From the IMG/VR virus record IMGVR_UViG_3300033463_000020: a stretch of DNA of 64,000 bases. The stretch is one strand, 5' to 3'. This document shows positions 28,391 through 63,261 of the stretch, piece by piece (the stretch's first letter is position 1; each line of letters opens with the position of its first letter). The translations under genes were made by a program, and so were the position numbers. The stretch comes from a virus (taxonomy: Duplodnaviria > Caudoviricetes). A model generated the notes under the pieces. The model worked only from the letters and a program-made list of their open reading frames with translations. It did not search any database and was not told where the DNA came from.

Positions 28391-28720
28391 TCAGGAGGGG
28401 GCGGGGAACTCTTCGTCGTGGACGGGGTAGATGATGATGGGGGCCCCCGGGCCGAGGTAGCCGATGGAGCGGACTATGTTATAGTCGACGTACTCGATCG
28501 CGCTGAGGATGTCGTCATCGGTGGGATGCTCGGGATCGGGAGCATCGGCGCGAATGGTGAGGGAGACGAGGAGGTCGTAGTCATAGACCAGGATGTTGTT
28601 TTCGGTCAGACCAACGATGGCCTCGTCGTAGTCGGTGATGGCGAGCGAATCGGCAAGGTCTTCGGAGGAGAGGTCGAAGCCGTGGTCGTTCAGGTAATCA
28701 AGGATCGACTAATCTATCAT
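28391..28720 (-). CDS. conserved phage protein, 109 aa, TAG at codon 4 (missing from the ORF track)
   Basis: ATGA overlap with the upstream stop; YDEAIVG...VYDYD...AIEYVDYNIVRSIGYLGPGAPIII family pattern. Confidence 0.8.
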
Positions 28721-30132
28721 GGCTGTTTCGCGGGCGTGTAATAGTCCGGGGTTGGGATCTCCATGGTTCTCATATATTCTACTACGTCGACGCCACCCAG
28801 ATAAATATGATCCCGGTCGTAGGTCACGGGGAGGAGGCGGCTGGAGCGAGCGATATACTGTGATGCGTTGTTGGTGAGATCGTACACGACCAGTCTATAT
28901 TCGTATATATTTGAGTCGCTGACGGGTCCGTAATAGACGATGTCGAGGTTCCCGTCCGCGTTAATGTCTATGGGCTTGGCCATCCAAATATCGTCGATGC
29001 TGGCGACGTTGGGGCGGAAGAAGATCCCGGTTTGTTTATCGAAGAAGAAGACGTGGTGGATTGTGCCGACGTCGGCTGTCAAGATCGCAAAACCCTTGGC
29101 GTGGAGTTCGAAGCCGGTGGTGTAATCCTCGTTGAGTCTGAAGGCGTTGGGGGTAGGATTGTCGAGGTTGAGAACAGCGGTGAGGTACGGCCGGATCTCG
29201 TCGGCCGATTTCCAGCCGGCGGTGGTCATGTACCCGTCTCTTTTGAGGATATCATACATGCGCTGGGTTTCTTCATTTAATTCTTTTGTTGCGGGCGTCT
29301 GCCTGGTGTCGACTATCCAGGGTGACGGTCCTCTGGAAGCAGAGATTTGCTCATCTTCATTGATGCGCCAGGTTTGCTTATCACTTGCCAGGATACCTTT
29401 GACGGTTTTATCCAGAAGATGCACATCAACGATCTCCCCCTTGTCATATTCGGGGACGAGGTTCAGAGCGAATATGTCATCGGCTATAAAATAATCCCAG
29501 TTTTTCTGAGGATCAATAAGCCTTAGCTGATTATAGGCGATGCCGACGTTGCCGAACTCCATGTAATAAAGAATCTCATAATTGCCGTCACCCGTTACGT
29601 CAATTGGGCAGGCAAACTTGAGTTCGTTATGGTAGAGGCGGGCAAGTTCGTAAACGGTGTCGTTAACTTTTACGAAGTACTGGCCGCCGCTGGAGCCGCC
29701 AACCCACATGGTGGTAAACCCGACTCGTTCCATTGCTTCAGAGGTGAAATTGGCAATGCCATACTGATTGGTTATGGTCTCGCCGGACAGGCGCTCGAGA
29801 GGGGTTATACCGCTTCTAATATCATAATTTGTCTTTCGACTCATGTAGCCCTTTTCATTGATGAGCTTCAAGAGATTCAGCATATTGCGAGATGAACCCT
29901 CGTCTGTCCTCTGAAGGACATAAGGATAGGCGGGCGTGGTAGGTGGCTCAACGGTGTCCGCAATGGTGCCCGTTGGGTCAGCTACAACCGTGGTTTCATC
30001 TCCTGGAATCGATGATTGCACAGGGACATCGGTGGTGAAAGGCTCGGTGGTGCTCTCGGGGGTACCTATGTTGTTATTACATGACGTCAGGAGCAGAAGT
30101 ACTATCGCGATAAGTAGTATAAATCTTTTCAT
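28717..30132 (-). CDS. lipoprotein with two internal repeats carrying DxxGDG-type loops
   Basis: lipobox LTSC, Thr/Pro-rich linker, PIDVTGDGNYEILYY and PIDINADGNLDIVYY. Confidence 0.75.
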   Translation of the reverse strand: MKRFILLIAIVLLLLTSCNNNIGTPESTTEPFTTDVPVQSSIPGDETTVVADPTGTIADTVEPPTTPAYPYVLQRTDEGSSRNMLNLLKLINEKGYMSRKTNYDIRSGITPLERLSGETITNQYGIANFTSEAMERVGFTTMWVGGSSGGQYFVKVNDTVYELARLYHNELKFACPIDVTGDGNYEILYYMEFGNVGIAYNQLRLIDPQKNWDYFIADDIFALNLVPEYDKGEIVDVHLLDKTVKGILASDKQTWRINEDEQISASRGPSPWIVDTRQTPATKELNEETQRMYDILKRDGYMTTAGWKSADEIRPYLTAVLNLDNPTPNAFRLNEDYTTGFELHAKGFAILTADVGTIHHVFFFDKQTGIFFRPNVASIDDIWMAKPIDINADGNLDIVYYGPVSDSNIYEYRLVVYDLTNNASQYIARSSRLLPVTYDRDHIYLGGVDVVEYMRTMEIPTPDYYTPAKQP

Positions 30133-30410
30133 TAATTTTCCTCTGAATCATCCTGCGCCGATTCGGGAGCGGGGGGCATAGCCGGACGCCGGGCAAGCTT
30201 ACCGGAGGTGGTCGTAGAGTCCTGCAGGGCGGCGTTAATGGCGCCCATTACAATGACGGCAAGAGTCACTACTATGATGAGGATATTGATGACCAGGTCA
30301 CGTGTGCTTGTGACGTTGGGAATGGCGAATAGTGATTTGGCCAGGATCCAGCCCAACAGCATGGGCTCAAGATAATACAGAATACGGGACAGAGTGTTAC
30401 GACGTTTCAT
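30132..30410 (-). CDS. small membrane protein
   Basis: two hydrophobic segments. Confidence 0.6.
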   Translation of the reverse strand: MKRRNTLSRILYYLEPMLLGWILAKSLFAIPNVTSTRDLVINILIIVVTLAVIVMGAINAALQDSTTTSGKLARRPAMPPAPESAQDDSEEN

Positions 30411-30453
30411 GCGATTTCATGCTCCTTATATAATATAATAATTTGTTCTAATT

Positions 30454-61531: not shown

Positions 61532-61540
61532 TTGTGTATC

Positions 61541-62209
61541 ATGGAAATTAAATTTCACAATCCGCTTGTGAGTTATTCGCATTTGGTCATGTTTGATTTA
61601 GCTTCTAAAATAACGGGGGTATGTTTGTGGGACCTGGCAGCAGAACGTCCGATTGAGACGACGATATTAAAGGTGCCCGACAATACTGAGTTAGGTGTGG
61701 CTGCTCTTTATGAGCAAATTGCGGCTTTGTTTACTAAGTTAAATGCTCGCGAGGACGTGTCAAAATTGCTAGTATGTAAAGAAGCAATGCCCACACAGTT
61801 ACATGGCGGAGCATCAACCGTTTAGACTTTTATAGCGCTGGCGCGCAGTCATGCTATATTAGATTTGTACACGCAGCAACATGGTTTAGCCATGTATGAT
61901 TATGTTGGGGTGTATCCTATTTCTACGCACGCTTATTTACGGCGCCTACTTAATCTCGAAGCGGGCCAGAAAATAGACAAAAAAGACATTCAAGCATTTG
62001 TGGCGCGAGAGTACGATCTCCCGGCGTTATCTTTCGATGAGGCGGATGCTGTTTTTTTGGCTAAAACTTTTGTTGACGTCAAATGGGACAAGGATTTGAC
62101 TGAGCGTGTGCGTGAAATTGGGCGCCATATCAAAACACTGAAGGATCCTCATCGTATTGCTGCTCTGAAACACGAGCAGGAGATGCTCAACGCATTGAAA
62201 ATTCACTAA
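61541..62209 (+). CDS. RuvC-like Holliday junction resolvase, 222 aa, 1 TAG (61823)
   Basis: FDLASKITG, KE, DEADA acidic motifs. Confidence 0.75.
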
Positions 62210-62220
62210 GGAGGTGGCAC

Positions 62221-63261
62221 ATGGGACGCAGTACAGTGTATAACGTTAATTTGACTAAAGACTGGGATCGGGTGTCCGATGAAAACCGCCGCCTGGTTAA
62301 GGAATATATTTAGTATTGTAAATCGAATGACCGGAGTCCATAGACCATCCATCAATATGAAGAATGGTTAAAAGTTTTTTTCTGCTGGAATTACGCTGAA
62401 AATAATAACAAGTTTTTTGTGGATTTGAAGCGCCGGGATTTCGTATATTATTTTGGCTGGTGCCGTGATCATGGACTCAGCGCAAATCGTATAGCATCTT
62501 TGAAATCTGTGCTAAGCAGTTTATCGGCTGCACTGGAATTGCTATATGAGGATTTGTATCCCAATTTTCATAATCAGTTGCGTGCCTTGGAACCCGTGCG
62601 TATCGCTCCGGTTCGACAAAAAACAGTATTATCCGATGAGCAGATGCACAACATTTTACAGGGTCTGGTGGATCGGCAGGAATACTAGCTAGCATGCTAC
62701 CTGGCACTGGCGTGTGCGTCCGGCAGTCGAAAAGCTGAGCTCTTATAGATGCGGGTAGATTTTTTCACACCCGAGCGCGAGGTCTTTGGTTCTTACATGT
62801 ATTGCACTCCGGAGATCCGCTCTAAGGGGCGTGGCGTCCAGGGCAAGGTTATTAAGAAATATGTTATCAAACAATTATTCGATCCATTCTTATAGTTGTG
62901 GCTAGCCGAGCGTAAACGTTTGGGGATAGAGATACCCGAATTATTTGTTACGAAACGCGCGGGGACATATATACCCGCCACCGTAGCGACCGCTAATGGT
63001 TTCGCGGAGCGGATTTCAAAACTTTTTAATATTGAATATTATGCACACTCTAGTCGACATTTCTTCTGTACGTCATTAAAACGCATGAAATTGCCAGATG
63101 ACGTGATTACGCAGATTTTTGGCTGGAGTAATTCTGATATGATTAAGATTTATTCTGACATCCCAGCAGAAGAGATCTTAGGAGAATTTTTTATGACTTT
63201 TTAGGTGCCCTCGGTGGGTACAGAGGAGAGGCAAAAGGAGGACAGTACTAATGAGCGCTAA
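62221..63261 (+). CDS. tyrosine recombinase, 346 aa, 6 TAG
   Basis: SGSRKAELL[TAG]M, SKG, HSSRH, FGW, IKIY; TAG at 62311, 62341, 62686, 62746, 62893, 63202. Confidence 0.85.

Follow-up and report, generated by a model that had tools for sequence, protein, structure and literature searches.

The codon TAG is almost certainly read as glutamine (Gln) in the phage to which the 64,000-nucleotide stretch of DNA analysed here belongs (the window; IMG/VR record IMGVR_UViG_3300033463_000020, Caudoviricetes), as comparison with its relatives indicates. This corresponds to NCBI genetic code 15, in which only TAA and TGA terminate. The explanation as a whole, with TAG as Gln, decoding by a tRNA(CUA) of the phage and a use of TAG that differs between gene classes, is very probable. 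The code change had been proposed for positions 28391-63261 by a sequence-only reading, and it is now supported by homolog columns, a strain polymorphism and the tRNA(CUA). The phage genome is complete and circularly assembled, has a size of about 149.5 kb and comes from cattle gut. The record of 149,604 bases, of which the window covers about positions 8029-72029, has ends that overlap by 127 bases and is assigned to the class with direct terminal repeats, at a completeness of 100%. The GC content of the whole genome is 48%. The sole difference in 64 kb between the window and the stored genome record is one C in a homopolymer run at 107-112 (5 versus 6).

Genes were called with a codon-log-odds caller that was trained on long open reading frames (ORFs) and ignored TAG; it replaced length-greedy calling, which gave spurious antisense ORFs in the early module of the window when TAG was taken as sense. 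Between 28391 and 63261 there are 38 genes, 21 of which contain together 52 in-frame TAGs, close to the roughly 55 TAGs in about 22 genes counted before by hand. No in-frame TAA or TGA is present and all genes terminate at TAA or TGA. Under table 11 this segment is a mosaic of same-frame fragments that are joined by read-through of TAG into genes abutting their neighbours. The claim that genes are split by TAG only is therefore confirmed, and the count of zero for the other two stops is far beyond chance: TAA and TGA together amount to about 5% per codon in the two off-frames of the genes, and true frames of 641-2310 codons hold TAG only. Several landmarks named by the sequence-only reading were located, namely the GTGA in which two genes overlap (46486-46489), the ATG at 44133 just behind a TAA (44128-44130), and the motifs ELL(TAG)M at 62737-62751, N(TAG)RFI at 55063-55077, GYL(TAG)F at 56198-56212 and GFI(TAG)FLI at 48935-48955. 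Four adjoining genes illustrate the situation:

43048-44130, plus strand: unnamed gene, 360 amino acids, 3 TAGs, with its TAA two bases before the ATG of TerL
44133-46058, plus strand: TerL (phrog_2), 641 amino acids, 6 TAGs at codons 26, 93, 95, 247, 555 and 633
46073-46489, plus strand: small gene, 138 amino acids, 1 TAG, in GTGA overlap with the portal start
46486-48327, plus strand: portal (phrog_2739, E = 2e-17), 613 amino acids, 4 TAGs

Coding density leads to the same result. Since stop-to-stop ORF cover summed on both strands failed to separate the codes, greedy non-overlapping ORF cover was used instead. For 28391-63261 it rises from 82% under code 11 to 95% with TAG as sense, compared to 84% with TGA and 91% with TAA as sense, and the number of ORFs of at least 300 amino acids increases from 8 to 13 under TAG-sense only. 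The respective values for the whole genome are 80.4% (code 11), 94.0% (TAG), 84% (TGA) and 88% (TAA), with a mean ORF length of 175 amino acids under code 11 and of 300 amino acids when TAG is sense. The called frames of the genome contain 249 TAGs and neither TAA nor TGA, and end with TAA in 87 and with TGA in 54 cases. Beyond the window, ORFs of 2310, 1554, 2405 and 2105 amino acids carry 30, 23, 22 and 12 TAGs. Along the genes the TAGs show a slight N-terminal excess only and no C-terminal pile-up, and thus are not terminators with short tails. TAG is not used as a terminator in this genome; there is one ambiguous case, in which a TAG stands two codons before a TAA.

The identity of the inserted amino acid was approached through homologs. 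TerL has hundreds of them at full length; in the 85 used for residue columns, Gln is the commonest residue at five of the six TAG columns. As some of the homologous Gln residues may themselves be translated TAGs, the comparison was moved to the DNA level and to 17 related viral loci. In-frame stops in TerL amount to ten TAGs in loci L001-L004 and to five TGAs in L009; L005-L008 and L010 have none. In the codon alignment, L001-L004 have TAG at columns such as 28, 200, 280 and 426, where the present phage has CAG and each of the other loci either CAA or CAG, and full-length TerL homologs without in-frame TAG have CAA or CAG at the TAG columns of the present phage. Some TAG positions are common to relatives and exchange with CAA/CAG. 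When all genes at most 10 kb from TerL were compared with five relatives that have little or no in-frame TAG in this region, a TAG of the window faced a Gln codon (CAA/CAG) in 56 of 96 comparisons. The background frequency of Gln was 3.5%, true Gln codons were conserved at 61%, Trp was found at 0/96 and Glu at 4/96 sites, and a likelihood based on empirical substitution profiles placed Gln ahead of the next residue, Arg, by 134 nats. Genome-wide comparison with one relative (G002, 150,079 bases), the aligned genes of which hold essentially no in-frame TAG or TGA, gave CAA/CAG at 41 of 72 TAG sites, Trp at one and Glu at three, with Gln as the best residue by 96 nats. Homolog columns lacking an enrichment for Gln had been named as the outcome that would speak against the reassignment; what was found is Gln at 57-58% of the TAG-aligned sites, an enrichment of about 16-fold that is on par with the conservation of true Gln codons (53-61%).

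The same holds for the possibility that CAG is present at these sites in the raw reads. The segment 43048-48327, which contains 14 TAGs, was found in bovine-gut and gut metagenome runs of 14 studies, and all of its sampled 31-mers are present in the Logan contigs, which were assembled independently from the probable source sample. Among the differences listed, CAG is seen as a strain polymorphism at position 44208, where a T to C exchange converts codon 26 of TerL from TAG to CAG in 4/4 runs from other studies. This is what a synonymous codon pair would show among strains, and it does not indicate that the window is in error here. The contigs of these four studies span the segment at 97-98% identity, and 33 of the 40 differences listed, out of 275 strain differences, are synonymous in the TAG-spanning frames.

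Scans of the window for tRNAs and for Rfam families gave nothing. Nine tRNAs are encoded at genome positions 119604-123271, about 48 kb past the end of the window, and among them is a tRNA(CUA) at 119879-119953, 81 bases upstream of a tRNA-Gln(UUG). Whole-genome searches with PF00472 (RF-1/RF-2 domain) and PF00749 (class Ic synthetase core) gave no match, so that the host would have to provide for charging as well as for termination. Sequence identity of the suppressor is 72% with E. coli trpT, 73% with the tRNA-Trp(CCA) that relative G004 encodes, and 61-63% with tRNA-Gln genes. Its anticodon arm is that of E. coli trpT except for a single anticodon base (CCA to CUA), and the T-arm sequence AGTTCGAGTCT is common to both. 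A blastn search of the suppressor against E. coli genomes found no match. The molecule has U1 opposite C72, which is a mismatch, as well as G73 and U35; G73 and a U1 that pairs weakly with position 72 count as Gln identity elements for glutaminyl-tRNA synthetase (GlnRS). Taken together with the tRNA-Trp-like body, these features make it most likely that the tRNA is charged with Gln by an enzyme of the host, as is the case for su7. The amber tRNA-Trp of E. coli escapes recognition by tryptophanyl-tRNA synthetase (TrpRS) and is charged by GlnRS (PMC2965240), so that a Trp-like body is compatible with Gln in the alignments. To such a su7-like route for the tRNA(CUA), predicted from this analogy, we would give an even chance.

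Two further observations concern the tRNA array. No theta or hepatitis delta virus (HDV)-like ribozyme was detected beside the suppressor by Rfam at E <= 0.1. A match to drum RNA (RF02958; 46 bits versus a gathering threshold of 43) is located at genome positions 121911-122029 (L018:3412-3530), directly after an unusually long tRNA-Arg(UCG) of 97 nt.

A meaning of TAG other than Gln is very improbable. Trp would be a candidate, given that the body of the suppressor resembles tRNA-Trp more than tRNA-Gln (72-73% versus 61-63% identity), and about 40% of the residues opposite TAG are indeed not Gln. However, this share is the same as at true Gln codons, the counts of Trp and Glu at TAG-aligned sites given above are low, Gln wins the likelihood by about 100 nats or more, and TAG is polymorphic with CAG among strains; moreover, the E. 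coli precedent shows that an amber tRNA-Trp can be a substrate of GlnRS instead of TrpRS. The probability that TAG still is a stop codon, and that the split genes represent pseudogenes, errors of assembly or sequencing or rare rescue by read-through, is lower still and practically negligible. For the early gene at 2729-3331 (minus strand) an end at TAG is conceivable, as a TAA follows two codons on, but it would be left unexplained why frames that reach 2310 codons in length hold 249 TAGs in total and neither of the other two stops. So would the fact that essential genes are hit in a complete genome that recurs in runs of 14 studies. Mostly synonymous divergence runs on across the TAGs, TAG positions recur in relatives and alternate with Gln codons, a dedicated tRNA(CUA) is encoded and TAG does not serve as a terminator. 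We thus retain Gln as the meaning of TAG.

The use of TAG is partitioned between gene classes, as becomes apparent from the gene content of the window (in addition to the four genes listed above):

2282-31569, minus strand: presumed early module, about 40 tightly packed genes with GGAGG ribosome-binding sites, TAG-free
11248-12144, minus strand: sigma-70-like factor (early module)
12734-13372, minus strand: primase Zn-ribbon protein (early module)
13384-16086, minus strand: PcfJ-like protein (early module)
16569-18623, minus strand: AAA ATPase (early module)
19258-21288, minus strand: VWA protein (early module)
32622-40089, minus strand: recoded genes including an RNA polymerase
34244-37213, minus strand: RdRP/YonO-like single-subunit RNA polymerase, 989 amino acids, 2 TAGs (PF05183, E = 9e-9; phrog_8308, E = 7e-90)
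41738-43018, plus strand: Mre11/SbcD-like exonuclease, 426 amino acids, no TAG (phrog_284, E = 5e-59)
48350-60394, plus strand: block of head and virion structural genes
49350-50849, 50982-51518, 51540-52625, 52673-53365, 53372-54091 and 57395-58459, plus strand: TAG-free genes of the structural block
48872-49357, 54081-54425, 54442-55629, 55646-56356, 56369-57355 and 58736-60394, plus strand: recoded genes of the structural block
57395-58459, plus strand: virion structural protein, no TAG
58736-60394, plus strand: virion structural protein, 3 TAGs
60418-60807, plus strand: holin, 129 amino acids, no TAG among 7 Gln codons (phrog_13712, E = 9e-20)
61112-62209, plus strand: two recoded genes, for a 139-amino-acid protein with 4 TAGs among 7 Gln-type codons and then for the RuvC-like candidate
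61532-62209, plus strand: weak RuvC-like resolvase candidate, 225 amino acids, 1 TAG (E = 3e-4)
62221-63261, plus strand: tyrosine recombinase/integrase, 346 amino acids, 6 TAGs among 16 Gln-type codons (PF00589, E = 2.5e-12; phrog_1, E = 1e-23)

Many recoded genes received no name in the Pfam and PHROGs scans. The names given before to TerL, portal, RNA polymerase and tyrosine recombinase were matched to families, and the RuvC-like resolvase obtained the weak match listed. Some peculiarities of single genes are added here. The tyrosine recombinase stands amid late genes and adjoins the RuvC-like candidate; it may not be a lysogeny integrase that is made early. The two virion genes at 57395-58459 (TAG-free) and 58736-60394 (3 TAGs) have a segment of about 310 bases with 78% identity in common (57406-57711 and 59030-59337). 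A strain that is 98% identical (X3 run) has 1535 extra bases within TerL at window positions 44711-44712, and the TerL matches of two relatives are 300-600 bases longer than the gene (L022:10001-12241 and L013:130-2644), which suggests a mobile intron or an intein with a homing endonuclease in some strains. Outside the window, a transporter of the xanthine/uracil permease family without TAG is encoded at genome positions 116090-117493 (L061:11091-12494; PF00860, E = 7e-51), an unusual auxiliary gene for a phage.

Within 2282-31569, presumably an early module that is compatible with the standard code, 3 nominal TAGs stand among 306 Gln-type codons, compared to 17.9% elsewhere (binomial P = 3e-22). 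One of the three falls between genes and precedes an ATG that has a ribosome-binding site of its own, one is the TAG two codons before the TAA of gene 2729-3331, and the third lies in a doubtful ORF of 40 amino acids. TAG makes up 1% of the Gln-type codons of the early module, 8% of those of the replication block and 20% of all others. Genes outside the window behave accordingly: TAG is absent from PolIII alpha (1312 amino acids), DnaB and primase, occurs once in a RecD2-like helicase and 30 times in a tape-measure-like protein. The early module also differs by a GC content of 52% and by a CAG:CAA ratio of 226:77, compared to 432:476 outside the early and replication blocks. The statement that the genome uses TAG as a sense codon was thus borne out with the modification that early and replication genes avoid it, and of the span 28391-63261 originally assigned to the recoding, the part from about 32.6 kb onwards is recoded, whereas 28391 to about 32600 consists of TAG-free minus-strand genes of the early module.

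Hardly any TAG occurs in the 29-kb minus-strand module and in the replication genes, and an unmodified host should therefore be able to translate them. The suppressor would be needed for full-length terminase, portal, virion proteins, RNA polymerase and recombinase of the phage, and could in this way gate late proteins in time. The partition fits the published model of an early, standard-code and a late, recoded gene set, and we lean with modest confidence towards such a temporal gating. Alternatively, TAG could mean Gln without any temporal switch, with a suppressor that is constitutive or active from the start and with TAG-poor modules that merely reflect a different origin or codon bias. 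The deviating composition and CAG/CAA ratio of the early module would be in agreement with this, as would the lack of TAG in the holin and in several head genes and the recoding of RNA polymerase and recombinase, which are not obviously late. On the other hand, a P value of 3e-22 is too strong for drift, as CAG to TAG is a single transition, and a split between replication and structural genes has been reported in several independent recoded clades (Borges et al., 10.1101/2021.08.26.457843). We therefore consider the absence of a switch to be unlikely and prefer the gating of late proteins.

A host among the Bacillota that uses the standard code is suggested by two kinds of evidence, the strong Shine-Dalgarno sites of the phage and the bin labels of metagenome-assembled genomes (MAGs). 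All TerL relatives in the species-genome collection are in bins labelled as Bacillota (Clostridium sp., Bacilli, Christensenellaceae, Lachnospiraceae, Gemmiger), and two lie on contigs of 130 and 139 kb that probably represent whole phages.

Several points weigh against the explanation favoured here or against parts of it. The sense reading of TAG is based on sequence comparison, and there is no RNA run among the listed runs that hold 43048-48327. The host assignment is a weak one, as it derives from MAG bin labels and Shine-Dalgarno use only, and if the Bacillota host lacked GlnRS, charging of the suppressor would require a non-discriminating glutamyl-tRNA synthetase (GluRS) together with GatCAB, a hypothetical route for a Trp-like tRNA body. 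Temporal gating is deduced solely from gene content and strand. The holin is TAG-free, unlike the bias towards lysis genes described by Borges et al., and no endolysin was identified among the annotated genes. Several presumably abundant head proteins are TAG-free, too, so that the gating would not apply to every gene of a module. The tyrosine recombinase belongs to the genes with the heaviest recoding, a misfit to the published idea of standard-code integrases, and the GC content of the genome is not low.

Additional information on the origin of the code change comes from the clade, represented by five complete or near-complete genomes:

Present phage: in-frame TAG, tRNA(CUA)
G001: in-frame TAG, tRNA(CUA)
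G003: in-frame TGA, tRNA(UCA)
G002: no in-frame stop in TerL, no suppressor
G004: no in-frame stop in TerL, no suppressor

The code matches the suppressor tRNA in all five genomes. At locus L009, TGA stands opposite TGG at 20 of 23 sites, so this sister phage (G003) reads TGA as Trp. Sisters without in-frame stops keep a tRNA-Trp(CCA). The tRNA(UCA) of G003 (L033:1501-1595, 95 nt) has a five-arm fold with the anticodon loop CUUCAAA and, after the anticodon arm, an extra arm with the stem CAGC/GCUG and the loop GUCCAAA, which is similar to a tRNA-Trp anticodon loop; this arm may be a decoy identity element for TrpRS. G002 and the present phage have syntenic core genes with a mean amino acid identity of 48%, yet their GC contents are 34% and 48%. 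A tentative and on balance doubtful idea is that one phage tRNA-Trp gene is the pivot of both code changes in the clade. An anticodon change from CCA to CUA would yield a su7-like amber suppressor loaded with Gln by the host (code 15), and a change from CCA to UCA would yield an opal suppressor loaded with Trp (code 4, as in G003). If true, this would give a mechanistic explanation of why TAG as Gln and TGA as Trp are the only reassignments in recoded phages whose hosts use the standard code, and of why codes flip over short evolutionary distances.

The present genome and its relatives need table 15 for annotation, as roughly 60% of all genes other than those of the early module are split under table 11, among them TerL, portal, RNA polymerase and the tape-measure-like protein. 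The phage adds a complete and well-supported example from cattle gut to a known code change and by itself raises no new question; the tRNA-Trp-like body of the suppressor is an added detail to a known phenomenon. The clade, with its standard-code, TAG-recoded and TGA-recoded members and their matching suppressors, represents a natural series for studying code change in phages. TAG as Gln in gut phages with suppressor tRNAs was described by Yutin 2021 (PMC7886860), Borges 2021/2022 (10.1101/2021.08.26.457843) and Babkin 2023 (PMC10607447), and proteomic proof for other phages was provided by Peters 2022 (PMC9523058); the sequence-only reading was thus right that code-15 gut phages were already known. 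A partitioned TAG architecture is known from crAss-like, Lak and Agate phages as well as from further clades, and the delayed-late-protein model builds on it (Borges et al.).

The Agate clade (Borges et al., bioRxiv 10.1101/2021.08.26.457843; Nat Microbiol 2022), with genomes of 154 +/- 27 kb from the guts of cattle, pig and tortoise, fits by size, habitat and code mix alone. Common features with the recoded clades of Borges et al., Agate in particular, are relatives with codes 11, 15 and 4, a size of about 130-155 kb and structural modules that are spread over the genome. With them the phage also shares TAG as Gln, a phage tRNA(CUA), recoded structural and standard-code replication genes and an animal gut as habitat; it differs from them by its TAG-free holin, by the lack of an RF2 gene and by a GC content of 48%, compared to the low-GC start of their model. 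The crAss-like code-15 phages (PMC7886860; PMC9523058) have the same reassignment, a suppressor tRNA and a bias towards late genes, and a large virion-associated RNA polymerase-like gene is present as well, but for the present phage strong Shine-Dalgarno sites and Bacillota MAG bins speak against a host among the Bacteroidota. A relationship to crAss-like phages was rejected: the TerL search of the phage collection gave 23 hits, each to a phage of Bacillus or Microcystis, with 28-36% identity over part of the length among the matches listed. The Lak megaphages of Prevotella (about 550 kb) are TAG-recoded, but have nothing in common with the present phage in genome size, host phylum or gene content. 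Nevertheless, a search of 50,697 phage records for the tRNA nearest to the suppressor led to the tRNA(CUA) of Lak-B (Lak-B2), with 78.7% identity over 61 nt and with the loop CUCUAAA and the T-loop in common. The gut phage phAss-1 of the proposed Phassvirus (PMC10607447; about 136 kb) has TAG in its TerL, portal and tape-measure genes and, as another likeness, a tRNA-Sup(CTA) and no aminoacyl-tRNA synthetase of its own. It has three suppressor genes and 36 tRNAs, compared to one suppressor and nine tRNAs here, and since the TerL search gave only records of Bacillus and Microcystis phages, a relationship to phAss-1 or Phassvirus was also rejected. For the suppressor itself the closest functional model is su7 (supU) of E. 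coli, an amber tRNA-Trp with the anticodon CUA that inserts Gln. Like su7, the phage suppressor is one base away from trpT in the anticodon arm, has the same T-arm and retains G73; unlike su7, it is natural, phage-borne and endowed with a U1-C72 mismatch, and its charging with Gln is predicted.

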